A stretch of DNA of 64,000 nucleotides from Malacoraja senta. Lineage: Eukaryota. The stretch covers positions 868,001 through 932,000 of the forward strand of contig CM075994.1 of NCBI GenBank assembly GCA_038087875.1. The letters run 5' to 3'. The notes beneath the pieces are model-generated. The model did not search any database. It saw nothing but the letters and a program-made list of their open reading frames with translations, and was not told the origin of the DNA. Shown in pieces: positions 1-62,500 of this stretch; position 1 is the stretch's first letter; every line of letters begins with the position of its first letter. Made by a program: the position numbers and the translations under genes.

Positions 1-450
1 GAATAGAGACACAGCCTACTCAACCTCTCCCCTTAGCTCACACCCTCTAATCCTGGCAACATCCTCGTAAATCTTTTCTGACCCCTTTCAAAGTTGACAA
101 TATCTTTCCTATAATATGGTTACAGAACTGAACACAATATTCTATATGGCGTCTCACCAACGTCTTATACAACTGCAACATGACCTCACAACTTCCATAC
201 TCAATACTAGGACTGATTAAAGCCAAAGTGCCAAAAGCCTTTTTGACCACCTTATCTACCTGCGACTCGACCTTCAAGGAACCATGTGCCTGCACTCCTA
301 GATCCCTCTGCTCTACAACACTACCCAGAGGCCTAATGTTCACTGTGTGCATCCTGCCCTTTTTCGATACCCCAAAATACAACACCTCACACTTCTCTGT
401 ATTAAATTCCGTCAACCATTCCTCTGCCGACCTGGCCAATCGATCCAGAT
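1..450 (-). mobile_element. CR1 LINE RT C-terminal fragment
   Basis: ORF 47..439 has EWLTEFNTEKCEVL, RDLGV and LYKTLVRRHIEYCVQF motifs typical of CR1 ORF2. Confidence 0.9.
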
Positions 451-639
451 CCTATATGACTATGGCCCTATGAATACATGAATCTATGACTGGATTTCCC
501 CTGCTCAAGGAAAAATTCTCTGCAAATTCCTTGTTGCACTTGGAGAATTTGTCTTGGAACTGAGAAAAATGGCTTTGTTGCTGGGTCCGAGGCCCCATCC
601 CTCTTCCCTCACATCTGCTCACATGGAATTGTCAAAAAT

Positions 640-3600
640 AGCAAAACACAAGGTGCTGGAGACAGCAGCTGTGGAGGGAATGGCCAGGTGATGTTTTGTG
701 TCAAGAGATCGACTCAAAATGCTGGAGTAACTCAGCGGGACGGGCAGCATCTCGGGAGAGAAGGTTGTGTGTGACGTTTCAGGTCGGTACCCTTCGACAA
801 ACTGAGAGTGAGGGGAGAGGGAGACACAGAGATATGGAAGGGTAAGGTGTGAAAATTACAGATCAAGCGCGACGATGAGCAAGGAAACATTGAATGGTTC
901 ATTGTTAGCTGAGGGGAAGGTGACAACATTACGTACAATCAGTAAAATTAATCAAGAGGAATGTGAAACTAGTTGGAGAACTAAGATGCAGAGGGATGGA
1001 GAGAGAGGGCAAACAAGGTGTCAAATGGGATAGTCGAGGACGAAGTTAAAGGGAAAGAGAGTAAAGGGATAGTTAATGACTCCAGAATTAGCGGGAAAGG
1101 AAGCTCACAAAGGGATAGGAGAGTATGGCCAAGTGTAATAGGGATCGATGTGAAAGGTGAGATGCTTAAAGAATTAAAGGTATTGCATTTGAATGCGAGA
1201 AGTATAAGAAGTAAAGTAGATGAGCTTGAGGCTCAGTTAGAGGTTGGTAGATACGACATTGTGGTGGTTACTGAGACGTGGCTGCAGGAGGATCGGGCCT
1301 GGGAAATTAATATTCAGGGTTATACATCCTATAGAAAGGACAGGCAGGTGGGCAGAGGACGGGGGGGGTAGATATGCTGGTGAGGGATGGAATTCAGTCC
1401 CTTGCGAGGGAAGACATAGGGACTGACGAGGTAGATTCACTGTGGATTGAGTTGAGGAATTGTAAAGGCAAGAAGACACCAATTGGTGTTATCTACAGAC
1501 CCCTAAATAGTAGCCCTAAATAGACCCCTAAATAGTGTAAGTTGCAGCAGGAGTTAAAACTGGCATGTAACAAATGTAATGCCACTGTGGTGATGGGGGA
1601 TTTCAATATGCAGGTAGACTGGGAAAACCAGGTTGGTTCAGGACCCCAAGAAAGAGAGTTTGTAGAATGCCTCCGAGATGGATTCTTAGAGCAGCTTGTA
1701 ATGGAGCCGACCAGAGAAAGGCAATTCTGGATTTAGTGTTGTCCAATGAACCAGATATGATAAGAGAACTCGAGGTAAAGTAACCGCTTGGAGGTAGTGA
1801 TCAAAATATGATTAGCTTTAATCTGCAAAAGGAGAACGTTAAATCGGAAGTGGCAGTGATGCAGTTGAACAAAGGGGACTATGAAGGCATGAGAGCGGAG
1901 CTGGCCAAAGTAGACTGGAAAGGGATCCTAGCAGGAATAACGGTGGAACAGCAATGGCAGGTATTTCTGGGCATAATCCAGGAGACGCAGGATCATTTTA
2001 TTCCGAAAAGGAAGAAAGATTCTAAGGGGAGTAGGAGGCAACCGTGGCTGACAAGGGAAGTTAGGGATAGAATAAAACTAAAAGAAAAGATGTATAACAC
2101 AGCAAAGAGTAGCCGGAAGCCAGAGGATTGGGAAACATTCATAGGACAACAGAAGGAAACAAAATGGGCAATACGGGCTGAAAAGATGAAGTATGAGGAG
2201 AAGCTGGCCAGGAATATAAAGAAGGACAGTAAAAACTTCTTTAGATATGTTAAGGGAAAAAGAGTAGCAAAGTCAAATGTGTGTCACTTGAAGGCAGACA
2301 CGGGTGAAATTATTATGGGCAACAAGGAAATGGCAGAAGAGTTGAATAGGTACTTCGGATCTGTCTTCACTAAGGAAGACACAAACAATCTCCCAGATGT
2401 ACTGGAGGACAGAGGATCTAAGGGGGTAGAGGAACTTAAAGAAATTTTCATTAGGCGAGAAATAGTATTGGGTAGGCTAATGGGACTGAAGGATCACCTG
2501 GACCTGATGGTCTGCATCCCAGGGTCCTCAGAGAGGTGGCTCTAGAAATAGTGGACGCATTGGTGATCATTTTCCAATGTTCAATAGATTCAGGATCAGT
2601 TCCTGTGGATTGGAGGATAGCTAATGTTATCCCACTATTCAAGAAAGGAGCGGAGAGAAAACGGGGAATTATAGACCAGTTAGCCTCACTTCGGTGGTGG
2701 GAAAGATGCTGGAGTCAATTATTAAAGATGTAATAATGGGGCATTTGGATAGTAGCAAAATGATTAGTCCAAGTCAACATTGATTTATGAAAGGGAAATC
2801 ATGCTTGACTAATCTTCTGGAATTTTTTGAGGATGTGACAAGTAAAATGGATGAAGGGATGCCAGTGGATATACTGTATCTAGACTTTCATAAAGCCTTA
2901 TATAAGGTCCCGCACGGGAGACTGGTGACAAAAATTAGAGCACATGGTATTGGGGGTAGGGTGTTGACATGGATAGAAAATTGTGTGGCAGACCGGGAGC
3001 AAAGAGTAGGAGTGAACGGGTCCTTTCCAGAATGGCAGATAGTGTCGAGTGGAGTGCCGCAAGGCTCGGTGTTTGGGGCCGCAACTGTTTGCCATATATA
3101 TTAATGATTTAGAAGAGGGAATTAGGAGCAACACTAGCAAGTTTGTGGATGACACAAAACTGGGTGGCAGTGTGAACTGTGAAGAGGATGTTAGGAAGTT
3201 GCAGGGTGACCTGGACAGGTTGAGTGAGTGGGCAGATGCGTGGCAGATGCAGTATAATATAGATAAATGTGAGGTTATCCAATTTGGCGACAAAAACAAG
3301 GGGGCAGATTATTATCTCAATGGGGTTAGGTTAGGTAAGGAGGAGGTGCAGTGAGACCTGGGTGTCCTTATACACCGGTCACTGAAAGTTGGCGTGCAGG
3401 TACAGCAGGCAGTGAAGAAAGCTAATGGAATGTTGGCCTTCATAACAAGAGGATTTCTGTATAGGAGTAAAGAGGTTCTTCTGCAGTTGTACAGGGCTCT
3501 GGTGAGACCACATCTGGAGTATTGTGTACAGTTTTGGTCTCCTAATTTGATGAAGGACATCCTTGTGATTGAGGCAGTGCAGCGTAGGTTCATGAGATTG

Positions 3601-4345
3601 ATCCCTGGGATGGCGGGACTGTCATATGAGGAAAGATTGAAAAGATTAGGCTTGTATTCACTGGAGTTTTGGAAGGATGAGGGGGGGATCTTATTGAAAC
3701 ATATAAAATTATAAAAGGACTGGACAAGCTAGATGCAGGATAAATGTTCCCAATGTTGGGCGAGTCCAGAACCAGGGGCCACAGTCTTAGAATAAAGGGG
3801 AGGTCATTTAAGACTGAGGTGTGAAAAAACGTTGTCACCCAGAGAGTTGTGAATTTATGGAATTCCCTGCCACAGAGGGCAGTGGAGGCCAGATCACTGG
3901 ATGGATTTAAGAGAGAGTTAGATAGAGCTCTAGGGGCTAGTGGAGTCAAGGGATATGGGGAGAAGGCAGGCACGAGTTATTGATAGGGGATCAGCCATGA
4001 TCACAATGAATGGCGGTGCTGGCTCGAAGGGCCGAAAGGCCTCCTCCTGCACCTATTTTCTATGTTTCTATGTTTCTAAGGGTGACTTGAAGTTAGAGAA
4101 GTCAATATTCATACCGCTGGGTTGTAAGCTGCCCATGCAAAATATAAGGTGCTGTTCCTCCATTTTGCGTGGGCCTCACTCTGACAGTGGAGGAGGCCCA
4201 GGATAGAAAGGTCAGTGTGGGACTGGGAGGGGGAATTAAAGTGTTTGGCAACCGGGAGTCCTAGGTGGACTGAGCGGAGATGTTCAGCGAAACGATGACC
4301 CAGTCTGCGCTTGGTTTTGCCGATATTGCTGGGACCCTTCAACAG
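640..4345 (-). mobile_element. Penelope-like element remnant (about 640-1015 and 4080-4345), split by a CR1 insertion
   Basis: GIY-YIG C-terminal peptide IGKTKRRLGHRFAEHLRSV...PVAKHFN in ORF 4109..4342; terminal repeat with degenerate hammerhead at about 772-795. Confidence 0.75.
1015..4078 (+). mobile_element. CR1 LINE, near-complete but frameshifted ORF2 (APE endonuclease + RT) with 3' tail
   Basis: LHLNARSIRSKVDEL/TETW (EN), MGDFN, KSCLTNLLEFF, GVPQGSV, FVDDTKL; (CTATGTTT)n tail at about 4060-4078; many stops and frameshifts. Confidence 0.95.
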
Positions 4346-4351
4346 TCTGAT

Positions 4352-4625
4352 TAGTTTAGCTTAGAGATACAGCGTTGAAACAGGCCCTAAGGCCCACCGG
4401 GTCCACACTGACCAGCGATTCCCACACATTAACACTATCCTACACACACTAGGGACAATTTACATTGATACCAAGCCAATTAACCTACAAACCTGCAGGT
4501 CTTGGGAGTGTGGGAGGAACCCGAACAACATTCAAGACAGCACCAGTAGTTGGGATCGAACCCGGGTCTCTGGCGCTGTAAGCGCTGTAAGGCAGCAACT
4601 CTGCCGCTGCGCTTCCGTGCCGCCC
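4352..4625 (-). mobile_element. HE1-like tRNA-derived SINE
   Basis: Head with A-box and B-box GGTTCGATCC; tail gggcctgtttc...tatctcta shared with CR1. Confidence 0.8.
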
Positions 4626-4663
4626 CTGTTCAATAAACACTTCTGCAAAAACAATGTTCTTAC

Positions 4664-4750
4664 CATCTGTCCACGGCGATTCAAATGCAGAATCATCAAT
4701 GCAGGGTTTCACTTCATCAAACCACAGATCTATTGAGCACTCCAAAAAAT
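4664..4750 (-). CDS. Coding exon 6 ((D)[28 protein letters not shown])
   Basis: Acceptor cctttctcctttatatgtacag; donor G|GTAAGA; 87 bp, phase 1-1. Confidence 0.85.
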
Positions 4751-7700
4751 CTGTACATATAAAGGAGAAAGGTGATTTTTAAAGCATCAATCACCATCAA
4801 ATACAGCAGAAAAGCAGGCATTTAATCTCAACATGCTTTAGTTCAGAGATATAGCGTGGAAACAGGCCATTCAGCCCTCTGAGTTCACGCCGACCTGCTA
4901 TCCCAGTACACTAGCACTATCCCATGCACTAGGGACGATACACAATTTTAACCAAAGACAATTAGCCTGCAAACCTGCACGTTTTGGAGTGTGGGAGGAA
5001 ACCGGAGCATCCGGGGAAAACCCACGCAGGTCACGGGTAGAACGTGCAAACTCCGTACAGACAGCACCCGCTGTCAGAATCGAACCCGGGTGTCTGGCGC
5101 TGTGAGGCAGCAACTCTCTACCATTGCGCCACCGTGCCAACCACTTCTATCCCTTTGTCCACTCCACGGGCATTAGCGCCAATTCACGTGGGGGAGGGGG
5201 GGGGAGCCCTTATCCTACCAACCTGCACGTCTTTGGGGTGTGGGAGGGAACCGGAGCACCTGTTTGTCAGGGGTTATGGGGAGAAGGCAGGAGAATGGGG
5301 TTGGGAGGGAACGATAGATCAGCCATGATTGAATGGCAGAGTAGACATGATGAGCTGAATTCTGCACCTAGTACTGATGAACATGAACTGAACTCACCAC
5401 GAGTGGTTTTGCTGCTCAGGACAGGATCATCTGCAAAAGAGATAAAGAAGGCACATATCCAATTAAACCTTGCCGCCCACTTTATTTTCAAGAATTAGTT
5501 CATCTGCGGTACTGTTCTCATTCATGGTGGCTAGCATTAAGGCAGTGGGTTGAAGGGTCTGTTTCTGTGCTGTCAACTCTATGATTCTGATTCTATGAAT
5601 CGATAATGTTTTATTATTAATGTGTAATTAATGTGTAACGTATTCATTCATTCATTCATTCATGATGTGTTATGTGTCATTCCTAACTGTCACTGTATGT
5701 CAAGTTGACAGAGGAGGGCGCTGCAGAGAGTTATAAAAACTGCACAGAGCATCACAAACGCTCAACTGCCCTCCTTGGATGATATATATAGGGCCCGATG
5801 CTTGCGCCGGGCCATAAACATCAAGCAGGACACATCCCACCCTGCCAACAACCTTTTCACTCTGCTACCCTCTGGGAGGCGATTCGGGTCTCTGAAGGTT
5901 CGCACCGGTAGACTAAAAAATAGTTTCTACCCATGTGCGATAAAAGAACTTAATTCCGACAGAGAACACTGGGGAAGCAAAATGTAATTCCAAGAAATGC
6001 AACATTCTTTTAAAATTCTATTTAAATACTTATTTATTATTTTTACTAATAAGTGTGCATATGTGTCAATGGTTGTCGTGTTTGTATTTTTTAACCGGAG
6101 GAGATGCAATGGAATTTCGTTGCACAGTATTGTGCAATGACAATAAACGTATTCATTCATTCATTCATTCATAATGTGTTATGGGTCATTCCTAACTGTC
6201 ACTGTATGTCAAGTTGACACATACGGGCGGAGCACCAAGGCAAATTCTTTGTATGTGAATACTTGGCCAATAAACTTTTACATTAATTCATTCATGCTAT
6301 TCCCCATACCGTCTATATCTCCCCATCCCCCTTTCCCCTTTCCCCTGACTTTCAATCTGAAGAAGGGTCTCAATCCGAAACATCACCTATACCTTTTCTC
6401 CAGAGATGCTGCCTGATCTACTGAGTTACTCAAGAACTTTGTGTATTTCCAGCGGTATGATTGTTGATTACTCTAATTTAAAGTCATGCCCTGCATTTCC
6501 TCTCCTCACCACCCCCCCCCCCCCCATCTCCATCCTACTCATTCTACTAGTTCCACTGTTCACCTCCATGTATCTCTTCATTATATCCTCTTCCCCAACC
6601 AACAATGGGCCATCCGCGGTCATCTGTTGCCGGCCCTGCTTTGTTCTGGTCTTTTCCCATCTCCAGTTCCCTCCCCTCCACTTTCAGTCTGAAGAAGAAT
6701 CCCGACCCAAAACATCACCCATCCTTTTTCTCCAGAGATGCTGCCAGACCCGATGAATGACTCCAGCACTTGGTGTATATCTTACATTTGGTTTAGTTTA
6801 TTTCAGTTTCATTTAGTTATGGGGTTACGGGGAGAAGGCAAGAGAATAGAGTTGGGTCGGAGAGTGAGATCAGCCATGATTGAATGGTGGAGTAGACCTG
6901 ATGGGCCGAATGGCCTAATTCTACTCCTATTCCTTATGAGCTTATGACTGTTAGACTGCGATCCACTTACCAAGATAATCGTACAGCTTGAACAGAGCAG
7001 GTTTAAAGCACACCTTCATCTGCATTAAAGTTTGGTGAATGTAACAGTCTGGAGAAAAAAAAACATCAGTCCACTTTCAAAGAAAAATAATATATACTTT
7101 TTAGTTTAGAGGTACTGCTCGGAAGCTGGCCATTCAGCCCACCTTGTCCGCGCTGACCAACGATCCCCGCACACTAGCAGTATCCTACACACACTAGGGA
7201 CAATTTACAATTTTTACCAAAGCCAATTAACCTACAAACCTGCACGACGTTGGGATGTGGGAGGAAACCGGAGCACCCGGAGGAAACCCCTACGCGGTCA
7301 CGGGGAGAACGTACAAAATGACACAAAGCTACGTGGCAGTGTGAACTGTGAAGAGGATGTTAGGAGTTTGCAGGGTGACCTGGACAGGTTGAGTGAGTGG
7401 GCAGATGCGTGGCAGATGCAGTATAATATAGATAAATGTGAGGTTATCCACTTTGGCGACAAAAACAAGGGGGCAGATTATTATCTCAAAGGGGTTAGGT
7501 TTGGTAAGGGGGAGGTGCAGCGAGACCTGGGCGTCCTTGTACACCGGTCACTGAAAGTTGGCGTGCAGGTACAGCAGGCAGTGAAGAAAGCTAATGGAAT
7601 GTTGGCCTTCATGTCAAGTCAAGTCAAGTCACATTTATTTATATAGCACATTTAAAAAACAACTCTCGTTGGCCAAAGTGCTTTACATTTGTTATAAGAA

Positions 7701-10700
7701 TAGTATAAACAAACAAACTACATACATATTTACATAGAGCCCTCACTCAGAGGACGTCAAGAAAGGCTTGAGAGTATAGATGTTTTTAGTCTTGACTTAA
7801 AGGAGTCGATGGAGGGGGCAGTTCTGATGGGAAAGGGGATGCTTCCACAGTCTAGGGGCTACAAGCGCAAAGGCGCGGTCGCCCCGAGCTTATGGCTAGA
7901 CCGCGGGATATTCAGCAACCCCAAGTCGGCCGATTTGAGGGACCTGGAGGTGGAGTGGTGAGAAGACTTTTAATGTAGGTGGGGGTAAGCCCATTGAGGG
8001 CTTTGTAGACATAGAGGAGGATCTTGAAATGTATACGGAACCGCACAGGGAGCCATTGGAGAGAGGCCAGGATCGGGGTGATGTGGTCCCTTTTTCGGAT
8101 CCCGTCAGGAGTCTCGCTGCGGCGTTTTGGACCAGTGGCAGGCGGTACAGGGAAGATTGGCTGATGCCAGTGTAAAGGGAGTTGCAGTAATCTAGGCGGG
8201 AGGAGATAAATGTGTGGATGATCTTTTCGAGGTCATCAAAGTGGAGGAATTGTTTTATTTAACTATCGTCCGAAGCTGAAAGAAGCTAGCTTTTACCACG
8301 GCATTGATTTGATTGCCAAATTTCAGTGCTGAGTCAAACATCACGCCAAGGTTTTTGACGTGAGGTTTGAGTAGTGGGGTAAGGCTTCCAAGGCTGCCTG
8401 CTATCATTTTGATTGAGTCCGAGGGGCCGAGAAGGATGACCTCAGACTTACTCTCGTTTAGTTGGAGGAAGTTCTGGGCCATCCAACACTTTATATCCTC
8501 GAGGCAGCGGGTAAGGTTAAGCAGATTTGATTGTTTTTTGGGCTTCAGGGGGAGATAGAGTTGTGTATCGTCTGCGTAGCAATGGAAGGAAATGCCGTGC
8601 CTTTCAATGACTTGGCCTAAGGGGAGCATATACAGGGAGAAGAGAATGGGCCCAAGGATGGAACCTTGTGGAACCCCACAGCAGAGATTAGCTGGGGAGA
8701 TAACAAGAGGATTTCAGTATAGGAGTAAAGAGGTTCTTCTGCAGTTGTATAGGGCTCTGGTGAGACCACATCTGGAGTATTGTGTACAGTTTTGGTCTCC
8801 TGATTTGAGGAAGGACATCCTTGTGATAGAGGCAGTGCAGCGTAGGTTCACGAGATTGATCCTTGGGATGGCAGGACTGTCATATGAGGAAAGATTGAAA
8901 AGACTACGCTTGTATTCACTGGAGTTTAGAAGGATGAGGGGGTATCTTATAGAAACATATAAATTTTTAAAAGGACTGGACAAGCTAGATGCAGGAAAAA
9001 TGTTCCCAATTTTGGGCGAGTCCAGAACCAAGGGCCACAGTCTTAGAATAAAGGGGAGGTCATTTAAGACTGAGGTGAGAATTTTTTTTTGCACCCAGAG
9101 AGTTGTGATTTTGATGGAATTCCCTGCCACAGAGGGCAGTGGAGGCCAAGTAACTGGATGGATTTAAGAGAGAGTTAGATAGAGCTCTAGGGGCTAGTGG
9201 AGTCGAGGGATATGGGGAGAAGGCAGGCACGGGTTATTGATAGGGGACGATCAGCCATGATCAAAATGAATGGCGGTGCTGGCTCGAAGGGCTGAATGGC
9301 CTCCTCCTACACCTATTTTCTATGTTTATATGATTCTAACTCCGTACAATGAGAACCCGGGTTCAGGATCGAACCCGGGTCACTGGTGCTGGAGGCAGCA
9401 ACTCTACCGCTGTGCCACCGTGTTGCCCAATTATGACTTTACTAATGTATATACATAAAAACATATACTTAAAAATATATAGTCAAAATTAAAATATTTA
9501 CTATTTTCCATTGCATTCCACTATGTAGTTCAATGCAGATAGTGAGAGGTGTTGCACATTGTCCATGCTGTATGGATGGGTGACATTTCGGGTCTTCTCC
9601 ATGTTCTCCAGAGATGTTGCCCGACCCGCAGAGTTACTCCATCACTTTGCGTCTTTTTTTACAAACCAGCATCTGCAGTTCCTTGAGGTAGAAGGGTCTC
9701 AACCCGAAATGTCTCCCATTCCTTCTCTCCAGAGATGCTGCCTGTCTCGCTGAGTTACTCCAGCATTTTGTGTCTATCTGCAGTTCCTTATTTCTTCATT
9801 GGAGAAATACAAAGGCATCCAAGGAAGAGTTTCTGGGATAGTTATTCCCTCTCTCTCTCTCCCTCCTCCACCCAAGTCGCACTAGCTTCTTGTTTCACCC
9901 AACAAGTGAGTGTCTTCCCTTCCATTGAAGGTAGACACAAAATGTTGGTGTAACTCAGCGGGACAGTCTGCATCTCTGGAGAGAAGGAATGGGTGACGTT
10001 TAGGGTCGAGACCCTTCTTCCCTTCCATTGACTCCATCTACACCTCACGCTGCCTCGGCAAGGCCAGCAGGTAATCAAGAACCTGTCTCACCCCGGTCAC
10101 TCCCTCTTTCCCCCTCTCCCATCGGACAAATGTTAGAGAAGTGTAAAAACGCACACCTCCAGATTCAGGAACAGTTTCTCCCATCTGTAACGAGGCAACT
10201 GAACCATCCTATCAACAACTAGAGAGCAGTGCTGACTACTATCTACCTCATTGGAAACCCTCGGACTATCTTCGATCGAACTTTATCGACTTTCTCTTGC
10301 ACTAAACGTTATTCACATTATTCCTTTTATCGCTTATCTGTACACTGTGGACGGCTCGATCATAATCATGTATTGTCTTTCCTGCTGACTGTTTTTTCAT
10401 GTTGGCGCACCATGATACCACCGCACCATGGCAGCCTCACCAACCTTCTGTCTGTCTTTTCGTCTAATTTTTGTTATTTTTGGTAGTTTTAAAAGTTTGT
10501 TTTAATGTTCTCTGGTTGGTTTTATGTGGGAAGTGGGGGAACGGGGAGTGGGGAGTGGGAAACTGTTTTTCAATCTCTTACCTTGCCGGAGATGCGATTA
10601 TTTTCCGGATCGTATCTCCGGTCGCTCTGCGGCCTAACATCGTGGAGCTGGCGGCCTTGGTCGGGACTGACTGTGAGCCTCACCGAGGGGCCGTGGACTT

Positions 10701-13700
10701 ACCATCGGAGCCTGTGATCCCTTGCCTGGGATCGACGCTCCAACCACGGCCTGCAGATTTCACCATAGAGGAGTTTGCAGTGTTGGGTAGAGACAATTTT
10801 TTTTGACAAAGCCGATAAACCTACAAACCTGCAACTCCTTGGGACATGGGATGAAACCGGAGCACCTGGAGTAAACCCACCCGCTCACAGCGAGAATGTG
10901 CAAACTCTGTACAGACAGCACACAAGCTCAGGATCGAACCCGGGACTCTGGCGCTGTGAGGCAGTAAATCTACCGCTGCACCACTGTGCCGCCCACAATC
11001 CCGTCAATAAAATCATAGAGCATAAAGTTGGTTCGCCAAAATTATTATACCTAAGATGGCATCTTAAAAGTCCATCTCTCGTTTGTACCCTTTCATAATT
11101 TGTTTATATGCCCACAGACTAACACTATCCAACACACACGAGGGACAATTTACATTTATACCAAGCCAATTATTTCACAAACCAGGACGACTTTGGAGTG
11201 TGGGAGGATAACGGAGCAACCGGGAAAAACCCACGCATGTCACGGGGAGAACGTGCAAACTCCGTACAGAAAGCACCCGAGGTCAGGATCGACCCCGGGA
11301 CTCTGGTGCTGTGAGGCAGCAACTCTGCCGCTGCGCCATCGTGCCGCCTTTCTCTCTGCACAGAAGTCGCATTTTTATTGATTTTGCTGCTTGCAAAAGT
11401 TCAGCATGAGAGACAGTCAGCTCACAGAAATCGCATGCACCAAAAATAATACTTACCCGTATCAGGGTTCGAAGCACAAGTCTTTAGAACTTCCAATCTA
11501 GCCCTTAGTTGGCACCCTGTGAATATAAATAGATTGTTACTGCATGGGATATAGGCACTGGCTATCTAATACGCAAAAGGACACAAAGTACTGGAGTATC
11601 TCTGTGAAATTTACACAAACACAGATGTAATGCTGAGGCTTTATAAGGCACAGGTCAGGCCGCATTTGGAGTGCTGTGAGGTAATTTGGGCACCATATCT
11701 GAGGAAGAATGTGCCAGCTCTGGAGAGGGTCCAGAGGAGGTTTACAGGAATGATTCCAGCAATGAGTGGGTTAGCATATGATGAGCGTTTGTCGGCACTG
11801 GGCCTCTACTCGCAGGAATTTAGAAGGTTGAGGGGGACCTCATTGAAACTTACAGAATAATGAAGGACATAGATGGAGAGGATGTTTCCACTGGTGGAAG
11901 AATCTAGGACCAGTGGACATAGCCACACAATTAAGGAGGAGAGGAGGAACATCTTGAGTCAGAGGGCAGTTAATCTGCGGAACTTATTGCCACAGACGGC
12001 TGTGGAGGCCAAGTCAGTGGATATTTTTAAGACAGAGATACACACGTACTTGTTTAGCATTGGTGTCAATTGTTATGGGGAGAAGGCTGGAAAATGGGAT
12101 TAGGTGGCAGAGATCAGGCATGATTGAATGGCCGAGTAGACTCGATGTGCCGAATGGCCTAATTCTACTCCTATAACTTGTGAACTCAGTGGGTCAAGCG
12201 GCATCTCTGGAGAACTTGGTTAGGTGACGTTTCGGGTCGGGACCATTTAGTTTAGAGATGCAGCATGGAAACTGGCCCTGCGGCCCACCGAGACCATGAC
12301 GTCAAGACATCACCCCGTACACTAGTTCTAGCACCCCCACTGGGGTCAATTTACAGAAGCCAATTAACCTGCAAACCTGCACTTCTTTGGAGAGTGGGGG
12401 GAAACCGGAGCACCCGGAGAAAACCCACGCAGCCACAGTGAGAACGTACAAACTCCATACAGACAAGCACCTGTAGTCAGGATCGAAACCGGGTCTCTGA
12501 CGCTGTGTGGCAGCAACTCTACCGCTGCGCCACCATGCCGCCCTTCTTCAGACTGAAGGAGCAGAGGGGAGAAAGCTTACGGAGAGAGGTGAGGGGAAGG
12601 GGTGGGAAGGAATACTGAGGTTCCTGGGTGGAGGTGAGAGAGGAGGCACAGAGAAAGTGACAAAGGCCCAAGGTGAGAGGACAGAATGTGTGAGGCAAAA
12701 GCAGTGAAGTCTCGAATTGTGAAGCTGGAGGGAGGAATGTAGGTGGATGGGGGGTGGGGAGGGATATTAGTGCTAGGCTTTGTCCTGCCCCTCTTCTCTT
12801 CCAGCTTTCTACCCCTCCCACCCACCAACCAAACCCCACACTGTCTGGAGAAGGGTCCCAACCAAAAACGTTACCTATCCATGTTCCCCAGAGATGCTGC
12901 TTGACATGATGAGTTACTCCAGCACTTTGGGTCCTTTTGTGTAAACCAGCGCCTGCAGTTCATTGTTTCTACAGTTATTCAGCAAGTTTGTTCTTCTGAA
13001 CTGCTTAAAATGGAAAATCCACTGATTCACTCCTAGTGATATCTCCATTTAATGCTTGCATTGAATCCTAAATGCACTTGGTTCAGACTCCCGGGAAGGA
13101 ATACTGTACCTATTGTGGGCTGAAGATTGTGGGCCACAATATTGTGGGCTATTGTGGCCCGTTCCTGTGTGCTGTTATTAGAGTCTTAGGGTCATAGAGG
13201 GATACAGTGTTGAAACAGGCTCTTCAGCCCAACTTGCCCACACCGGCCAACATGTCCCATCTACACTTGTCCCACCTGTTTGCATTTGGCCCATATACCT
13301 CCAAACCTGCCCTATCCATGTACCTGTCTAACTGCTTCTGAAATGTTGGGACAGTCCCAGCCTCAACCTCAACTACTTCCTCTGGCAGCTTTTACCCAAT
13401 CAATTGCTCTTATGATTTTATACATCTCTATAAGATCACCCCTCATTCTCCTGCGCTCCAGGGAATGGAGACCCAGCCTCCACAACCTCTCCCTGTAGCT
13501 CACACCCTCTAGTCCTGGCAACATGCTGGTAAATCTTCTCTGTATCGTTTCCAGCTTGACAACATCTTTCCTACAACATGGTGCCCAGAACTGAACACAA
13601 TACTCTAAATGCGGTCTCACCAATGACCTCCCAACTATTCTTTGTTCTGCTTTCTAAAGCATTACTAATACTTCTGCTCTTATTTCAAAATAAAGTTAAC

Positions 13701-15192
13701 CTACTCACTTCTCCTATTGAACATGTATGCAATTAATTCGCAATGTCGAAACAAAGAACTGCAGATGCTCATTTATACCCAAGATAAACACAGATTGTCA
13801 CAAAGATTTAATAAGAATCTGAAGGGTATCGTTTTCACGCAGTGGGTGGTGGGCATATGGAATGAGCTGCCAGAGGAGGTAGTGGAGGCAGGGGCTAGGG
13901 CAACGTTTTTTAACGAGACATTTACACAGGTACGTGGATCAGACAGGTTAAGAGCGATATGAGCCAAATGCGGGCAGGTGGAACTAGTGTAGAATGGACA
14001 TGTTGGCCGGTGTGGGCAAGTTAGACTGAAGAGCCTGTTTCCATGCTGTAAGACTCTATGACTATGAGTATGGCTCTAAGTGCTGGTAACTCAGCGGGTC
14101 AGGCTGCATCCCTGGAGAAAAAGGATAGGTGACACTTTGGGTCGGGACTGAAAGTGGGGGGTGGGGAGCGGAAGGGGGTGAAGAGGTGGAGATGAAAAAA
14201 GATCAGGGCCGGCCACAAATTAACACAGGCAGGGCGGAGCCTGGTAGGTCCATTGTTGGTGTGATCTCAAGAGGGATACAAAGTGGTGAACTATGGAACT
14301 AATTTAACTATGATGGAGGAATGGGGAAAGTGGGGAGGGGGTGGGGGGGAAGGCAGTCGGTAGAAGTTACTTAAAATTTGATAATTCAACGTTCACCTGC
14401 TGGGGTGTAAGCTGCCCAAGCGAAATATGAGGTGCTGTTCCTTCAATTTGCGCTGGGCCTCACTCTGACAGTGGAGGAGGCCCAGGACAGAAAGGTCAGT
14501 GTGGGAATGGGAAGGAGAGTTAAAATGGTACAACACTGACATCTCAATACCTCAATAGTCACCTTTCAGACGACACTAGATATGCATCTTTCTGCATTTA
14601 GATTTAAAGGTTTATTCAGTTTTGTTTATTGTCACGTGTACCGAGGTACAGTGAAACGTTTTTGTTGCATGCTATCCAGTCAGCAGAAAGACAATACATG
14701 ATTACAATCGTGCCGTTTACATTGTAAGGAAACATGATAAGGAAATAACGTTCAGTGCAAGGTAAAGCCAGCAAAGTCCAATCAAGGATAGTCCGAGCAT
14801 CATCAAAGAGGTAGATAGTATTTCAGCACTGCTCTCTGGTTGTGGTAGTTGCCTAATAACAGCTGGGAAGAAACTGTCCCTGAATCTGGAGGTGTGCGGT
14901 TTCACACTTCTGTACCTTTTGTCTGATGGGAGAGGGGAGAAGAGGGAATGGCCAGGGTGTGACTCGTCTTTGATTATGCTGCTGGACTTGCAGCATGAGG
15001 TATAAAATGAAGTAAAAATTACCTGGCAGATCCATGAAATATTTAATCAGATGTAAGATTTCCATCGAGCCCACTGCAAAGTGAAGGAACAAAGTTAGAG
15101 TTTCGGGGTGATGTGAGTTAAAATGGAGGCAGACTAAAGTAAGTTAACTCACCAAGAGGGATCAGAAGGACAACGAAAAATATTCCCCTCAT
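4664..15192 (-). CDS. Unrecognised secreted cysteine-repeat protein, 6 coding exons (15192-15153, 15073-15023, 11516-11457, 7048-6971, 5430-5398, 4750-4664); 3' end not resolved
   Basis: Exons sit in non-repeat islands, have canonical splice sites and all introns are phase 1. They join without a stop into [116 protein letters not shown]. Hydrophobic N-terminus; TATA box upstream. Confidence 0.85.
4838..5140 (-). mobile_element. HE1-like tRNA-derived SINE
   Basis: ggcacggtggcgcaatggtagaga head; B-box gggttcgattc; CR1-like tail. Confidence 0.8.
5398..5430 (-). CDS. Coding exon 5 ((D)[10 protein letters not shown])
   Basis: Acceptor ctttatctcttttgcag; donor G|GTGAGT; 33 bp, phase 1-1. Confidence 0.75.
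5710..6165 (+). mobile_element. Rex1/Babar LINE 3' fragment
   Basis: [16 protein letters not shown]...LLPSGRRF...KNSFYP; tail aatgacaataaa followed by (ATTC)n. Confidence 0.85.
6971..7048 (-). CDS. Coding exon 4 ((D)[25 protein letters not shown])
   Basis: Acceptor T-rich tract ending tctccag; donor G|GTAAGT; 78 bp, phase 1-1. Confidence 0.85.
7318..9330 (+). mobile_element. CR1 LINE 3' part, split by an L2 insertion
   Basis: Nearly the same sequence as 3150-4075; breaks at ...gccttcat / ataacaagagg. Confidence 0.9.
7613..8699 (-). mobile_element. L2 LINE 3' fragment nested in CR1
   Basis: [11 protein letters not shown] and [11 protein letters not shown]...[15 protein letters not shown] (L2 RT); tail tgtaaagcactttgg...tgctatataaataaa followed by (GACTT)n. 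Confidence 0.9.
11457..11516 (-). CDS. Coding exon 3 ((G)[19 protein letters not shown])
   Basis: Acceptor atttatattcacag; donor G|GTAAGT; 60 bp, phase 1-1. Confidence 0.8.
11625..12185 (+). mobile_element. CR1 LINE 3' fragment
   Basis: [22 protein letters not shown] motifs and CR1 3' UTR. Confidence 0.85.
13180..13625 (-). mobile_element. CR1 LINE 3' fragment
   Basis: [14 protein letters not shown]...[10 protein letters not shown]. Confidence 0.85.
15023..15073 (-). CDS. Coding exon 2 ((V)[16 protein letters not shown])
   Basis: Acceptor gttccttcactttgcag; donor CAG|GTAATT; 51 bp, phase 1-1. Confidence 0.85.
15153..15192 (-). CDS. Coding exon 1 (signal peptide [13 protein letters not shown])
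   Basis: ATG in catcATGa context; donor G|GTGAGT; 79-bp intron follows. Confidence 0.85.
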
Positions 15193-15300
15193 GATGAGAA
15201 AGATGCGATCGTTCAATTTCAGGTCTCTTCAGTGCTTATGGGCTTTGCCACCGTCTTCTTGTAGCCAAGTCTTCTGCAGTTTCCGTACTATGGCTGGGGC

Positions 15301-15380
15301 TTTTTATATTGTTTCCACACCCTGAAATTGAAACTCAGTCAAGTGCCTAGATGTGAACCAGTGACGTCTAGTTTCGTTTT
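15301..15380 (-). promoter_or_regulatory. TATA box and proximal promoter of the secreted-protein gene
   Basis: TATAAAA on minus strand at 15308-15302, about 110 bp upstream of the ATG. IRF/ISRE-like GAAATTGAAACT (15324-15335) and AGTTTCGTTTT (15370-15380). CRE-like TGACGTC (15362-15368). Confidence 0.55.
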
Positions 15381-16427
15381 ATGCCTTCAAAACCAACCTG
15401 GAGTTTAGATGAATAAGGGGTGGACCACATTGAAACTTACCGAATAGTGAAAGGCCTGGATAGAGTGGATGTGGAGAGGATGTTTCCACTGGTGGAAGAG
15501 TCCAGGACCAGAGGGCACAGGATCAACATTTATTTGGTCAGAGGGTGGTGAATCTGTGGAATTCATTGCCACAGACGGCTGTGGAGGCCAAGTAAGAGGA
15601 TATTTTTAAGGCGGAGATAGATTCTTAATTAGTGCAGGTGTCAGGAGTTATGTGGAGAAGGCAGGAGAATGGGGTCAGGAGGGAGATGTAGATCAGCCAT
15701 GATTCATGCCGGAGTAGACCTGATGGGCCGAATGGTCTAATTCTGCTCCTATCCATTATGAACTTACAAATGACAGGTTTCCTTGTCATGCCGGAGTAGA
15801 CCTGATGGGCCGAGGTACGGAACCTCCCTTGGCCTGTGTGTTGTATTGTATCGTATCTCCGTCCGCACTGCGGCCTAACATCAAGGAGTTGGCGGCCTTT
15901 GCTGAGGACCGACTTCAGGAGCTCCAGCCACGGGAGCCTGAAGGACTTAACCTTGTAAACCTTGTAAACCTACGCTGCACTCCCTCAATAGCAAGAATGT
16001 CCTTCCTCAAATTAGACCAAAACTGCACACAATACTCCAGGTGTGGTCTCACTAAGGCCCTGTACAACTGCAGAAGGACCTCTTTGCTCCTATATTCGAT
16101 TCCTCTTGTTATAAAGACCAACATGCCATTTGCTTTGTTCACTGCCTGCTGTACTTGCATGCATTACTGTCATAGACTGATGTACAAGGACCCCCAGATC
16201 CCGTTGTACTTCACCTTTTCCCAACTTGACGCCATTTGAGTTTAGAAGAATGAGAGGGGGACCTCATTGAAACCCACCGAATTGTGAAAGGCCTGGATAG
16301 GGTAGATGTGGAGAGGATGTTTCCGCTGGTGGGAGAGTCTAGGATCAGTGGTCACAGCCTCAGAATAAAAGGATGTTCATTTAGGTAACAGATGAAGAAG
16401 GATTTCTTGCTCAGAGGGTGGTGAACC

Positions 16428-41990: not shown

Positions 41991-44649
41991 CAGCTAGTGT
42001 TTGTGGTAATGTCTGTTCTTTAAATGCGTATGTATAAAGATTGTGTAAACGTGGGGAAATTACCTTGTAAAATTATTTTATAAAATTCGTTACTGAACCC
42101 GTCTGGTCCTGGTGTTTTACCGTTCTTCAATGAATTGATTGTCTCTTCTATTTCTTTAATTGAAATCTGTGCTCCTAATTCCTCTTGTTCCAGCGGATTG
42201 AGTGTTGGAAGTTTACAGTTGTCCAGAAAGTTTGTAATTTTTCTGCTTTCTGTTGATGTTTTGGATGTGTATAAGTTTTGATAAAATTGGACAAATCTTT
42301 CATTAATGTCTTTTGGAAGCGTTAACAGTTCACCTTTATCTGATTTAATTTTTAGGATAGTCTGGTGCTTTTCAACTTTTCTCAGCTGGCGTGCTAAAAG
42401 TTTGTGTGGTTTGTCGCCGAATTCGAAATGTTCCTGTTTTGTAATTTGAAATAATCTAGCAACTCTTGCAGATAGAATTTGGTTTAGTTTAAATTTCAAT
42501 ATTGCTATCTTGTTGTGTTTATCTATAGTCGCATCTATTGCATTTTCTAAATCAAGTTGTCTGATCTGTTCTTCTAGTTGCAATTGTTCCGTCCTATTCT
42601 TTTTATTTTGATAAGCTTGATATGAAATAATAGAACGTCTAATAAAAGCCTTAAAAGATTCCCATAATAGGGAGGGCGAGATATCTGAGGTATCATTGGT
42701 CTAAACAAAAAGTTCCATCTGTTGTTTTAAGTATTTGCAACAGTCCGGATTATTTAGTATTTGAGGATTAAACCTCCAAAACGATTTTTTATTAAATATT
42801 CCTTCTAGTTTTAAGGAGAAGGTTAGCGGAGAATGATCGGAAATAGTGCTATTATGGTATTTAGGGTTAGTTGTGAAGGGTATTAATTTAGTGTCCACTA
42901 GGAAGTAGTCAATACGTGTATAGGTTTTATGTACTGATGAGTAGAAGGAGTATTCTCTTCTGGCAGGGTTTGCAATCCTCCATACATCTGTTATATTTGT
43001 ATTTTTATATATGTATTTAAAAGTTCACTGGATTTTGATTTTGTATTATGTCTCTTTTGTTGGGCAGATTTATCGAGGTATTGATCCAAAACGCAATTGA
43101 AATCTCCCCAGATTATCACATTTTGCTGAGTGGACTCAGAAATTATATTCAAGATTTTATTTTAAAATTGTGGGTTGTCAAAGTTAGGAGCATAAATATT
43201 TACCATGATAAGTGGGGTAGAATGTATCTCCCCAGAGACTATGACATACCTCCCCTCTTTGTCTGCAATGGTGTTTTTATGTTTAAATGGTATGCCCTTA
43301 CGGATTATAATTGCAGTGCCTCTGGATTTGGAGAGATAGGAGGAATGATATGTTTGACCGATCCAATTGGCCTTCAGCCTGGTCTGAGCTTGAACTTTAT
43401 GATGTGTTTCCTGTAAAAATATTATGTTGGCATTGAGTGATTTAAATTGGGCAAGAATCTTACCCCTTTTAATTGGCTCATTAGAGCCCCTAATATTCCA
43501 GCTACAAAACGTAATTCCTCCAGTTTTCTTTGGAGGGTCGTCTTGCATTGTAACTTACATTGGTTCCATTATTTCAGATGGTGCAACACAACAACTCAAC
43601 CTCCCAGTTTCTGAACTCTGTCGGTATATCCCAAAGGTGCCCTATAGAGAAAAAGCGAAAAAGGTGCTAAATAACATAAATAATATAAAAAAACAGTATT
43701 TAGAAATACTGTGTGAAACCACCAAATGGTGGAAGAATTTGAGTAATCTTCCGTAGACGTAGATTACATTTAGCTCCGCTCCTTACAAACTAGTATTATA
43801 GAAGAGAAAGAACAGGCCAGAACCGGATAATATATTCGCAGAAAAAACAACCAAGCCTGTACTATAAGTAGTTCATCTAATAGGTTAAACTAAATAGATA
43901 TTTACTGTTTAAATGCTGTATTTAAATTAAAATATATATTTTTTAACTTATTAATAATCCTCATATTTAAGTAACAATCATCTGGCTGGAGGGGGTTAAC
44001 TGAGAACTGAATCTTGAATCCGCGTCTTGGCTGCCTGCCAGGTTCTTCTCAGGCTCTCTTTTACTGGCTCCTGACAAGCTTGGATGATTCTCTGTCGGTT
44101 TGGCCGACCGTTTCTGGAAATTTGCCCACACAAATCGATTAACCATATTTTTGATATATACCGATACAATGAACCTTAACTAGAGGTAATAAATCTAGAA
44201 GTTATTCAGTGTTAGCTTAAAAGGAATGAATCATTATTTGGTTATGACATTACGTTTTAGGTTAAAATAAATGATTTAGTACAATTATTTATGTGTTAGT
44301 GATATAATTGATTATATAATTTGTTGGTAGATTATTACATTCCACTCCGTTTAATTTGTTTTTTATACTGCATGATTCCAGTTTCTTGAACCTTTCTTTA
44401 GTAAACACGACGGCCTTGAACATTCTATCCGCTTACGTTCCAATCCATCCCTGATAAGGTGTCTAGACATTAGCACGTGCGAGTTAGTCGGCCATCTTAT
44501 CTGCAACTTTTATATATCTTTTTATGTAAAGAAACATATTCTCTCAATCTACCCCTTATAAATATATATAAAAGGTATACATTAAACACGTGGTTTAATC
44601 CACGAAATCAGCAAAGCCGTAGCATTCTACTTATCCTTTAGAGTCCTTT

Positions 44650-45658
44650 TTAAAAGTCTTGTGCGTATTTGAATGCGGCTACTGGGTCAATAAAGAAACG
44701 CTCCGAGTCATTATATATGACCCTCAGTTTGGTGGGATACATTATTCCATATGTCAGGTTTGGGATTCCTTTAAGAATCTGCCGGGACTTCGTAAAAAGG
44801 GCACGTTTCTTCGCCACCTCTGCCGGGTAATCTCTGAATAATCTTACACTTTCTCCTTCGAACATCAGATTTTTTCCAATTGTCACTTTCTTCATAATGT
44901 CTTCAAGAACTGCTGTGTCGTTAAGTTTCAGGATAATCTGTCTTGGTGGAGCTCCGACCCCTGAGTATGCTCTCTGAACTTGATGTGCAGCATCAACTTT
45001 GGGTCTTTCAGAGAGACTGAATACTTGTTGAAGTAAGTTGGCAGTGAAAGCCCGAGGGTCTATTCCAGTTTCCTTCCCTTCTTTCACTACAACAATTCTT
45101 AAGTTTTGCCGTCTGGACCGGGCTTCAAGATCTAGACATTTGTCGGTCATTCTGGCCAGTTGCCCAGAAACTCGGTCTAGATCTTCTTTCATTCTTTGCA
45201 TCGCATCAGACATGTCCATAGTTGTAGTTTCCAGATCTTTAATAGCTTTGTTTTGTTCTGTTGAAGTAAGGAGAATGGGTTCCAGCTTTTTAGTGAGACC
45301 TTCTTCAACCCGTTTGATTTCTTCTCTTAAATCTGTATCTACTTCTTCAATACGATGCTGTAGAATACCGATCTTTTCACAAATATCATCCATTCTTGTT
45401 TCTAACTCCCAGCTGAATAGACAGCTTGGAAAGCTCCTTATTCAAAATCTCACCAAAGTCCTTTGCCATAGCTTTTCTTAAAGTTTGTTCTTTTTCTTTT
45501 ACTTTTCCTTCCATAACAGCAATAAATCTTTGTCCTTCAGATTCCTCCTCAGATTCTTCAGGTGTTGTTTGAGGTGTTGTTTTCTCTAATTCTTGAGCAA
45601 GCTTCAGTCTGGTTAGTGATCTTGTCTGGGGCACCGTCGGTAAAGTCCGTTTTTGCAT
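44650..45658 (-). pseudogene. L1 ORF1 (coiled coil + RRM), frameshifted near 45390
   Basis: LEARSRRQNLRIVVVKEG, FRDYPAEVAKKR, YPTKLRV motifs. Confidence 0.85.
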
Positions 45659-51337: not shown

Positions 51338-51537
51338 NNNNNNNNNNNNNNNNNNNNNNNNNNNNNNNNNNNNNNNNNNNNNNNNNNNNNNNNNNNNNNN
51401 NNNNNNNNNNNNNNNNNNNNNNNNNNNNNNNNNNNNNNNNNNNNNNNNNNNNNNNNNNNNNNNNNNNNNNNNNNNNNNNNNNNNNNNNNNNNNNNNNNNN
51501 NNNNNNNNNNNNNNNNNNNNNNNNNNNNNNNNNNNNN
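51338..51537. other. Assembly gap (N run)
   Basis: 200 N. Confidence 1.
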
Positions 51538-54103: not shown

Positions 54104-54108
54104 ATAAA
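54103..54108 (+). promoter_or_regulatory. Candidate polyadenylation signal overlapping the SKIV2L stop
   Basis: TGAATAAA. Confidence 0.6.
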
Positions 54109-56903: not shown

Positions 56904-57869
56904 GTCTCTCCCTCCCTCTCTCCATCTCTCTATCATATTCATAGAGAGTCATAGAATCATACAGCACGGAAGCAGGGCATTCGACCCATGTTGTTCATGC
57001 CGACCAAGAAGCCCCATCTATATTAGTTCCACATGCCCACATTTGGCCCATATACCTCTAAACATTTCACACACAGGGACCTGTCCTTTAAAGCGTGTTG
57101 TAGTCCCTGCCTCAACTCCCTGCTCTGGCAGCTTGTTCCACACACCCATCCTGTGTGGAAAAATTACGTCTTGGGTTCCTTGAATATTTCCTCCTCTCAT
57201 CTTAAACCACTGCCCTCCGGTTCTTGATTCCCCCACTCTGGGCAAAGGACTCGATGCATTCTCCTCTACGCATTATATTCCTCTCATTTGCATTAGGTCC
57301 AGTTCATTGACAATGCTGTTATACATTGGGCACATTGGGCACAATCATAATAAGTACAAGAGTGTAAGACTATAGAACACACTGAGTCATGTGGATATCC
57401 CAAAAGCTATTGAAGATGTACAATTCATCAATACATTAAAACCAGGTGCCAGATAGTACCTGTTGTCAACCTATTCATTTTCGCTACCTTTGAACTCCGC
57501 TCCTTGAGGGTTTCAGAAGACGATAGGCAGACCATTTGACATGCTCGCTGTTATTACCATTATACATCCAATACATACAGACTTGCCATTAATACATTTG
57601 GCGTCACTAACTTTTAGTTTTCGCTTCGTTTAGTTTAGTTTAGAGATGCAGCGCGGAACAGGCCCTTCGGCCCACCGAGTCCGTGCCGACCAACGATCCC
57701 CGCACGTTAACACGATCCCGCACACACTAGGGACAATTTACATTTCTACCAAGCCAATTAACCTACCTACCTGTACGTCTTTGGAGTGTGGGTGGAAACC
57801 GAACATCTCTGCCGCAGGTCAAGGGAGAACTTACAGAGAGCACCCATAGTCGGAATCTAACCTCGGCCC

Positions 57870-58085
57870 TGTAGATGAGGTTGGAGGAGATGCCAGTCAA
57901 CCTCTGCCTCATCTGCATTTGCACCTCCTCGCCCCGACAGTCTTTTCATGTGAGGCAGATGTTCACTTGCATCTCCTACAACCTCATCTACTGTATCCGC
58001 TGTCCCAGGTGTGAACCTCCGCACATCGGCGAGACCAAACGCAGGCTCGGCGATCGTTTTGTTGAACACCTCCGCTCAGTCCGTC
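57870..58085 (+). mobile_element. Penelope-like GIY-YIG endonuclease fragment
   Basis: FTCISYNLIYCIRCPRC...IGETKRRLGDRFVEHLRSV. Confidence 0.85.
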
Positions 58086-58104
58086 TTAAGTTTAAGCAAT
58101 TTAG

Positions 58105-58882: not shown

Positions 58883-59059
58883 CATCGAAATCTGATAGAG
58901 AATAGACCAAGGGTCACCAAAAGGGTAGATAGTATTTCAGGACTGCTCTGTGGTTATGGTAGGGTGTATCAATTGCCTGATAACAGCTGGAAGAAACTGT
59001 GCCTGAATGTGATGATGTGCCTTTTCAGATCAAGTTTCAGATCAAGTTTCCGAGCTTTA

Positions 59060-59347
59060 TCACTCAACTAACCTAAAAATAAACGAATCAAAACTAAACT
59101 AAACTCGACTAGAATAGACTAAACTAAACTAAATTAAACTAAACTAAACTAACTTGGCTAAATTAAATTAGACGAAACATAATGAAATGGAACAAAACAA
59201 AACTAAACTAGATTAATGATAACATAACTAATTAAAGCAAACTAATACACTAAAGTAAACTAACTAAAGCAAACTAACTAAATTAAATTAACTAAAGCAC
59301 ACTAACTAAACTAGTGATTACACTAACTAAACTAAACTAGTAAACTA
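59060..59347. repeat. Degenerate (AAACT)n tract
   Basis: Direct observation; same unit as the SINE tails. Confidence 0.9.
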
Positions 59348-62449: not shown

Positions 62450-62500
62450 CCTTCCGTTTCCAAAGCACCCCATTCATAGAGCGCCTCCTTTCACCAGAGG

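Follow-up and report, generated by a model that had tools for sequence, protein, structure and literature searches.

Exon architecture and closest relative

The window, a 64-kb stretch of DNA from the skate Malacoraja senta (scaffold C18:868001-932000), carries six small exons of a gene that is read on its minus strand. A preliminary description of this DNA had given the sizes of these exons, canonical splice sites, phase 1 introns, and a joined frame of 116 codons, and all of these features were reproduced here. Five of five introns are GT..AG and phase 1, and the joined frame is stop-free, with cysteines at positions 32, 44, 52, 64, 92, and 104. The three cysteine motifs quoted in that description were found in their places, and the exons indeed lie in unique islands between repeats, as judged by the low repeat depth there. 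Exon 6 terminates in a donor, and further exons had been expected to the left. They exist: exons 7 and 8, which bring a fourth module and the stop codon, together with a likely 3′ non-coding exon, lie 2-7 kb past the left edge, and the window model is thus incomplete.

15153..15192, minus strand: exon 1, 40 bp, coding; start codon and most of the signal peptide
15023..15073, minus strand: exon 2, 51 bp; end of the signal peptide and an amphipathic N-terminal helix
11457..11516, minus strand: exon 3, 60 bp; module 1, C32-x11-C44
6971..7048, minus strand: exon 4, 78 bp; module 2, C52-x11-C64, and a helix extension
5398..5430, minus strand: exon 5, 33 bp; linker
4664..4750, minus strand: exon 6, 87 bp; module 3, C92-x11-C104, and the start of an acidic linker
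1..4663, minus strand: intron 6, continuing past the left window edge
C18:865925-865887: exon 7, 39 bp; acidic linker, with an AAG acceptor
C18:864007-863918: exon 8, 90 bp; module 4, C134-x11-C146, followed by D-E-L and the stop codon
C18, from ~862986: likely non-coding exon
C18, ~861516: AATAAA, a putative poly(A) site

The last two features were placed from sequence only. The full model encodes 158 amino acids with eight cysteines (32, 44, 52, 64, 92, 104, 134, and 146). Its mature chain of ~142 residues is acidic (pI 4.3-4.5) and has no N-glycosylation site; there is no membrane segment past residue 20, and the protein has no catalytic motif.

A profile of 13 module sequences, searched against 1.84 billion representative proteins, returned two proteins at E<=0.001. 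The better match (XP_078271988.1, E 1e-13) is the product of an uncharacterized gene, LOC144602725, of the skate Rhinoraja longicauda, and is one of three isoforms (XP_078271987.1,.88.1, and.89.1) that are predicted RefSeq models. Such isoforms are usually backed by RNA reads. The second match (P0005, E 1e-4), an unnamed protein of 271 residues, was rejected as a chance cysteine spacing in a sequence that has tandem repeats and no signal peptide. Isoform X1 is identical to the 158-residue model at 97 of 150 aligned residues (65%) and keeps all eight cysteines. Isoform X3 lacks exactly exon 2, isoform X2 is missing four residues at the beginning of exon 7, and the length differences between the two species sit at the exon 4/5 and 6/7 junctions. 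Judged by sequence, LOC144602725 is the orthologue of the window gene: it likewise has a signal peptide, all eight cysteines, and a D-E-L end, and differs in an exon-6 region that is 8 residues shorter and a linker that is 3 residues longer. The linker exon also varies within M. senta, measuring 42 bp in one of the further gene copies described below (copy D).

Conservation is uneven along the protein. Module 2 is the best-kept module (19 of 26 exon 4 residues identical). In exon 6, 15 of 21 aligned residues match, and exon 3 retains 8 of 20 residues along with both of its cysteines. Exons 7 and 8 match at 9 of 13 and 16 of 28 residues. The signal-peptide-like start that had been proposed is a hydrophobic segment (mean hydropathy 3.4 over residues 4-14) common to both species, with 11 of 14 exon 1 residues matching. 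Recurrence of the exon junctions and of all eight cysteines in a related skate is the outcome that had been put forward as a check on the gene model. The word "hidden" does not hold in its strict sense, because the orthologue is already a predicted, albeit uncharacterized, RefSeq gene.

The exon pattern itself is not a product of chance. A strict filter for phase 1-1 exons, applied to 836 kb of DNA, yielded 76 candidates, and C-x11-C occurs in 11 of them, while any other cysteine spacing from 6 to 16 occurs in at most 3. The full motif C-x8-[LMVI]-K-x-C is present in 10 of these 11, and every one of the 10 comes from one of the gene's four copies. A real multi-exon gene is thereby confirmed, with its splicing in M. 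senta predicted. When the exon 1-2 stretch was compared with sequencing records, four rows from two studies were returned, none of them recorded as RNA.

Less can be said about how the modules arose. Growth by exon duplication, as originally proposed, draws support from the symmetric phase 1-1 exons and the equal cysteine spacing. However, the modules are barely alike beyond their cysteines: pairwise p values range from 0.04 to 0.45 over 12 comparisons, and at the DNA level no likeness between modules was found at p<0.1. Counted from the first cysteine of each module, hydrophobic positions repeat at roughly +2, +5/6, and +9, but module 4 is the sole one whose amphipathicity is significant in both species. 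Because the likeness beyond the cysteines is weak, duplication is plausible rather than demonstrated.

The preliminary description could not assign the protein to a family, and neither could we. Protein searches with single exons gave no match, and a search with the full orthologue gave one match among eight candidates, which was its own isoform. With the orthologue as query, Pfam yielded no family at E<=1, three exons likewise found none, and NCBIfam offered no family match. Among PDB sequences, there were three matches at E<=10, none under E 0.19 and none a saposin or canopy chain. Two ESM Atlas searches gave a best score of 0.77 and then no usable match. The best cytokine sequence match, IL-7, stands at chance level (E 7.3). 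A literature search, with most subscription journals outside its scope, found neither the gene, its accession, nor a description of the protein, and CX11C appeared in other contexts only. Blank family searches are no proof of novelty. The narrow range that had been suspected is borne out in that the sole relative found is the R. longicauda protein, for which a single such gene, with no name or family, was returned. A range of skate-like fishes only is nevertheless a lower bound, because coverage of sharks and rays in the searched libraries is uncertain.

Copies, promoter, and chromosomal setting

Genome searches with exon 6, exon 8, and promoter DNA led to the same four places each time. With the orthologue as query, 10 of 13 matches fell in these four copies, and the other three were weak (E 0.29-6.4).

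Copy A, the window gene on C18, minus strand: intact
Copy B, C18:1009221-990085: intact
Copy C, C18:702422-720726: intact through the eighth cysteine, then a late frameshift
Copy D, C680:411200-388446: a pseudogene; exons 2 and 3 are frameshifted, one donor is GC, and exon 4 contains a stop

The gene is recently multiplied and fast-changing. Relative to copy A, the other three copies differ at 16, 32, and 63 of ~478 exon bases, and their introns differ by 2.1, 3.4, and 6.1%. A stricter collinear repeat of this comparison, which retained only 349, 358, and 476 exon bases, gave 3.7 versus 2.2, 7.0 versus 3.3, and 13.4 versus 6.6% for exons and introns, respectively. The exon excess is 1.7-2.1x (block-null p 0.034, 0.009, and 0.0002), and the divergence figure for copy D may be inflated by its frameshifts. 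A dN/dS comparison had been suggested as a check; carried out between the gene copies, it gave pN > pS in all six pairs, with only 1.5-8 synonymous changes per pair. Because exons outpace introns and pN exceeds pS, the sequences point to positive selection on the protein surface while the cysteines are held fixed.

Three elements upstream of the start codon suggest how the gene might be controlled.

15324..15335, plus strand: strict ISRE (GAAANNGAAACT), 15 bases upstream of the TATA box
15370..15381, minus strand: second IRF/ISRE-like site, differing from GAAANNGAAACT at one position, on the border of the unique promoter island
15300..15308, minus strand: TATA-box-like element, ~115 bases ahead of the start codon

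The ISRE consensus was taken from PMC6954429. The strict ISRE matches once in the window, where 0.18 matches are expected, and at least one ISRE appeared somewhere in 16 of 100 shuffled windows. There are four strict matches in 836 kb, and two of these are in the promoters of copies A and B. The element is broken in copy C, and copy D reads GGAA in one half. The imperfect second site, weak by itself, recurs in A, B, and C, and the TATA-like box is kept in all four copies. We place the ISRE in a putative proximal promoter, judging from the TATA-like box. The ISRE also looks like the pyrimidine tract of a splice acceptor, so that a non-coding exon farther upstream is a possible alternative to a promoter.

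Copies A, B, and C each stand tail-to-tail with an array of 7tm_1 genes that have three exons and are nearly identical, referred to here as GPR139-like. This array has 17 copies, and among the 15 complete ones, 7 are fully intact and 8 are broken. The nearest receptor gene is 3.5 kb from gene A, and the 160 kb of C680 sequence examined for copy D contains no such receptor. Repeated blocks to the left of the gene were considered as further modules and rejected, since they are these receptor genes. Stonustoxin-like genes lie 40-75 kb from copy B and 17 kb from copy D. A SKI2-type helicase also has its last two exons in the window; no other terminal exon of this type was found in the genome, and the piece adjoins an assembly gap. 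This helicase is presumably SKIV2L rather than MTR4, judging from its C-terminus and from a second DSHCT gene on C1. Pfam searches of selected open frames around the cluster (78/165 and 62/148) revealed no other conserved neighbor.

Farther along C18, at 8.1-8.7 Mb and thus 7 Mb from the gene, three anaphylatoxin exons all match complement C4 best, although one of them scores <1 bit better for C4 than for C3; a control anaphylatoxin exon on C16 matches C3 best. In the sawfish, the MHC chromosome carries SKIV2L, GPR139-like arrays, a stonustoxin-like gene, and C4 (PMC10751288). Because C4-like and SKIV2L-like genes are on the scaffold, C18 is probably the MHC chromosome. Among the matches listed, none of 88 for MHC class I, 14 for TNF, 2 for BET, and 2 for BAG6 fall on C18, and most are on small unplaced contigs. 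Complement factor B was not seen by eye right after the helicase exons, where the sawfish has it. The linkage of the gene to the MHC is therefore loose. A search for STK19 found nothing anywhere in the genome. The sawfish MHC chromosome also includes an unnamed 27.5-kb gene, LOC127585965, which is surrounded by MHC-Ib genes and has ten GPR139-like genes tail-to-tail with it (PMC10751288). This gene is a candidate counterpart and offers a lead.

Predicted fold and C-terminal tail

Structure prediction followed by a fold search, which had been recommended as a further check, returned the expected helices and no homologous fold. Two single-sequence AlphaFold models (X1, pLDDT 68.5 and pTM 0.57; X3, pLDDT 63.7 and pTM 0.53) agree in giving each module its own long helix, four in total; the first loop is short, and the acidic loop that leads into helix 4 has low confidence. 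Foldseek with the whole model found nothing at E<=0.001, and a wide fold search gave generic helical matches only (best Z 8.3 at rmsd 8.5). No cytokine was among the top fold matches, and no saposin fold was among the matches listed for this single-sequence query (pTM 0.57). In a model of moderate confidence, helices span residues 19-43 and 50-76, and the segment from 19 to 80 fits generic antiparallel hairpins with deviations of 2.2-3 A. The protein is thus predicted to be a four-helix protein with one C-x11-C helix per exon, in agreement with the helical, cysteine-stapled product that was first envisaged. The two cysteines of a helix, at a distance of 12 residues, are unable to form a disulfide together, which makes disulfides across helices the simplest arrangement. 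By this reasoning, and by analogy with twin-CX9C hairpins, the pairs would be C32-C64, C44-C52, C92-C146, and C104-C134.

The best structural analogy is to the twin-CX9C proteins. In these hairpins, two antiparallel helices carry two cysteines each and are joined by an inner and an outer disulfide, and CHCHD5 has four CX9C motifs in a row (PMC12114033). CHCHD5 resembles the window protein in its small size, its two cysteines per helix, and the antiparallel hairpins that are predicted here. However, the spacing is x9 rather than the x11 found in all four pairs in both species, twin-CX9C proteins belong to the mitochondrial intermembrane space whereas the window protein has an ER signal peptide, and the sequences do not match. 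Short-chain four-helix cytokines (IL-7, CSF1/KITLG/FLT3LG, and IL-4/13) also share a signal peptide, a mature chain of ~140 residues, four helices, disulfides, and fast evolution with the window protein. Cytokines of this type have an up-up-down-down topology with long A-B and C-D loops. In contrast, the loop between helices 1 and 2 (A-B) has ~6 residues in the X1 model and 3 in the X3 model, which argues against a cytokine bundle, and the protein has an x-D-E-L end. No match to a cytokine family was found in Pfam or among PDB sequences.

The C-terminal tail is a clue to where the protein might act. M/T-D-E-L ends copies A, B, and D as well as the orthologue, and copy C has lost it through the late frameshift. 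Only 1 of the 8 residues before D-E-L is common to copy A and the orthologue. The chance of a D-E-L ending is ~0.001, given the protein's own composition, although the tail, like the ISRE, was noticed after the fact. In exon 8, the stop codon is one base ahead of the donor, and its position inside the donor consensus may help to fix the D-E-L ending. The motif XX[DE][FLM] at the C-terminus of a signal-peptide protein, which was used as a screen in PMC2140024, is present in A, B, and the orthologue but not in C. Among non-canonical x-D-E-L motifs, many support ER localization, fully or in part, and retention forms a continuum (PMC2140024). Residues K, R, H, N, F, W, and Y at position -4 are efficient, and S and Q are weaker (PMC2140024). 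The residue here is M or T, neither of which is among the residues named. A fair reading is that x-D-E-L is a weak or partial ER-retrieval signal. Because this ending is found in three of the four copies and the orthologue, retrieval to the ER is a possible fate of the protein alongside the simple secretion that was initially assumed.

Candidate roles

We favor, by analogy, an inducible immune protein of the secretory lumen that would resemble MZB1 and CNPY proteins in its working without being one of them. More precisely, the leading candidate is an interferon-inducible, disulfide-stapled four-helix binding protein that is held in the ER or slowly released, a reading to which we give somewhat short of an even chance. 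MZB1/pERp1 and CNPY1-4 combine a signal peptide, a disulfide-bonded helical body, and a KDEL-like end, and they act on immune cargo (PMC3893805). They are the best functional analogy for an ER protein, with the signal peptide and the KDEL-like end common to both. Their cysteine pattern is different, however, they lack a Pfam, PDB-sequence, or listed fold match to the window protein, and the multiple copies and fast evolution of the gene are unlike them.

Under this preferred reading, IRF or interferon signaling would switch the gene on through the ISRE beside the TATA box. The 158-residue protein would enter the ER by way of a 16-residue signal peptide, which is presumably cleaved, and would fold into two helical hairpins in which each helix carries one exon-encoded C-x11-C. 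Given the absence of a catalytic motif, binding of another protein is the most likely mode of action. KDEL receptors might pull the protein back to the ER via x-D-E-L, probably inefficiently, such that it would act mainly in the ER or early secretory lumen, perhaps as an adaptor or co-chaperone for immune cargo. Alternatively, it could be held in the ER and released under stress. A conflict with some changing partner, for example a pathogen protein or the diversifying MHC class I molecules, might then lie behind the duplication and the fast amino-acid change. Two further points weigh against an ER-held protein. Copy C keeps its eight cysteines even though D-E-L is lost and the ISRE is broken. 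Furthermore, fast evolution and gene birth-and-death are more usual in secreted than in ER-resident proteins.

The same observations can be read as those of a plainly secreted immune or mucosal effector, or a cytokine-like signal, if M/T-D-E-L is too weak to hold the protein, and we consider this second reading nearly as likely. Such a protein would be made on IRF signaling, exit the cell, and bind a receptor or microbial target. The signal peptide, eight conserved cysteines, four helices, and lack of a membrane segment all suit it, as do the ISRE and TATA box, the accelerated exon change, and the tandem copies. The non-canonical -4 residue and the tail-less but cysteine-complete copy C suit it as well. 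Indeed, a secreted effector accounts for everything except the tail, since D-E-L persists in A, B, D, and the orthologue even though the tail around it is poorly conserved. A cytokine in particular is disfavored by the short helix 1-2 loop, which suggests an up-down hairpin instead of long crossover loops, and by the top fold matches; strong acidity is unlike membrane-attacking defense peptides.

No living group with MHC-based immunity is older than the cartilaginous fishes. Perhaps the gene represents a family so far found in skate-like fishes only, built from four exon-encoded C-x11-C helices, located on the MHC chromosome, interferon-inducible, and ER-retrieved, that provides a new lumenal component of antigen presentation or of antibody/receptor assembly. 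Positive selection would be driving its diversification in parallel with the large expansion of MHC class I in this genome (88 matches listed), and copy C would be a tail-less secreted offshoot. We regard this fuller proposal as speculative and rather doubtful. The MHC chromosome of cartilaginous fishes has many unnamed genes (PMC10751288). The window gene is one of these or a close neighbor, for which a full model, an orthologue, a predicted architecture with no family match, and three testable clues (the ISRE, x-D-E-L, and accelerated exons) are now in hand. An inducible ER adaptor, if true, would be a new kind of immune helper, and a secreted protein would be a new family of small immune effectors or signals. 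Either way, the predicted scaffold is compact, helical, and disulfide-stapled, with one helix per exon. Orphan, fast-evolving, cysteine-stapled secretory proteins are already a known kind, and this gene had been predicted, unnamed, in one other skate. What is new is the use of one C-x11-C helix per symmetric exon together with an x-D-E-L end.

The receptor genes raise the idea of a reproductive or chemical-signal protein (a gland secretion, a sperm or egg-case fluid component, or a pheromone), which might even be a ligand of the adjoining 7TM receptors. Copies A, B, and C are all tail-to-tail with the array, and fast evolution with birth-and-death is typical of such proteins. However, the receptors may merely share a duplicated segment, copy D has no receptor in the 160 kb examined, and sawfish GPR139-like arrays are found at several places on the MHC chromosome (PMC10751288). 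The ISRE and D-E-L would also be left unexplained. We judge this role unlikely.

It is more improbable still that the protein is a very diverged member of a known family, whether of the saposin-like CNPY/MZB1, secretoglobin or albumin type, or a four-helix cytokine. Shallow searches, based on one orthologue, could miss a remote link, and the signal peptide, conserved cysteines, and KDEL-like end match the CNPY/MZB1 outline (PMC3893805). Set against this are the blank results from Pfam (E<=1), PDB sequences (none under E 0.19), and Foldseek (E<=0.001). In addition, four equal C-x11-C pairs, one per exon, do not form the saposin pattern.

Finally, decaying duplicates without a present function, in which amino-acid change would reflect relaxed constraint, seem highly improbable. 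In favor of decay, copy D is clearly a pseudogene and copy C has its late frameshift, synonymous change is not in excess over non-synonymous change, and 8 of 15 complete neighboring receptor copies are broken. Against it, exons change faster than introns rather than equally, and copies A, B, and C, like the orthologue with its 65% identity, have retained their frames, splice sites, and all eight cysteines.

Copies A and B of the gene for the predicted four-helix protein

Copy A, the gene in the window, and copy B on the same scaffold (C18, compared as stretch L012) have zero amino acid differences over residues 74-126, encoded by exons 5-6 (window 4664-5430), whereas 9 residues differ in exons 2-4. 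Judging from this uneven pattern in the sequences, gene conversion between the two copies is possible. In this species as in Rhinoraja longicauda, the acidic linker (window 4664-4750 together with exon 7 past the left edge) closes with four acidic residues and then a tyrosine, an arrangement that resembles a site for tyrosine sulfation or calcium binding. In copies A, B, and C, a CRE-like core separates the gene's two IRF-like sites:

window 15362-15369, minus strand: CRE-like TGACGT core

Receptor array and transposable elements

Seventeen near-identical (92-100%) 7tm_1 genes are arranged in tandem, each with three exons and encoding 329 amino acids. The reading frame is open in 10 of the 15 complete copies, and 7 of the 15 have canonical splice sites as well. 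The window also carries two elements, their classes judged from translation; one of the two sits within the repeat that holds the receptor genes.

window 57365-64000 and G000:C18:726-983 kb (source genome, window's scaffold): 7tm_1 receptor array
window ~62500: start of one 7tm_1 copy
G000:C18, 627, 643, and 1148 kb: further, more distant 7tm_1 copies
window 59614-62136, plus strand: 840-aa endonuclease/reverse-transcriptase frame, nested in the repeat unit of the receptor array
window 42000-45500, minus strand: LINE-1-like element, ORF1 and endonuclease pieces

Stonustoxin-like genes and a repeat unit

Several stonustoxin-like genes lie on either side of the gene cluster for the predicted four-helix protein on both contigs (C18 and C680). 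Their domains are of the helical, thioredoxin-like, and fn3 types, and a GTPase-like frame lies next to them. Elsewhere on C18, a repeat unit carries similar open frames without a Pfam match.

L062:97-2427 (minus strand), L064-L065, and G000:C680 ~428.7-433.6 kb: stonustoxin-like genes
G000:C18 ~597-608 kb (L075, L074): repeat unit of ~3.5 kb, at least four repetitions

Helicase end and MHC class I matches

The end of a SKI2-type helicase is present as a single copy:

window 53010-53170 and 53900-54104, plus strand: final two exons (Pfam DSHCT)

An assembly gap (window 51338-51537) adjoins these exons. The preceding DSHCT part matches unplaced contig C2819, so assembly may have broken the gene apart. 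MHC class I matches in the source genome number 88, spread over many contigs. Almost all of these contigs are small and unplaced, and many of the matches have identical scores: either class I has expanded very strongly here or the assembly is redundant.
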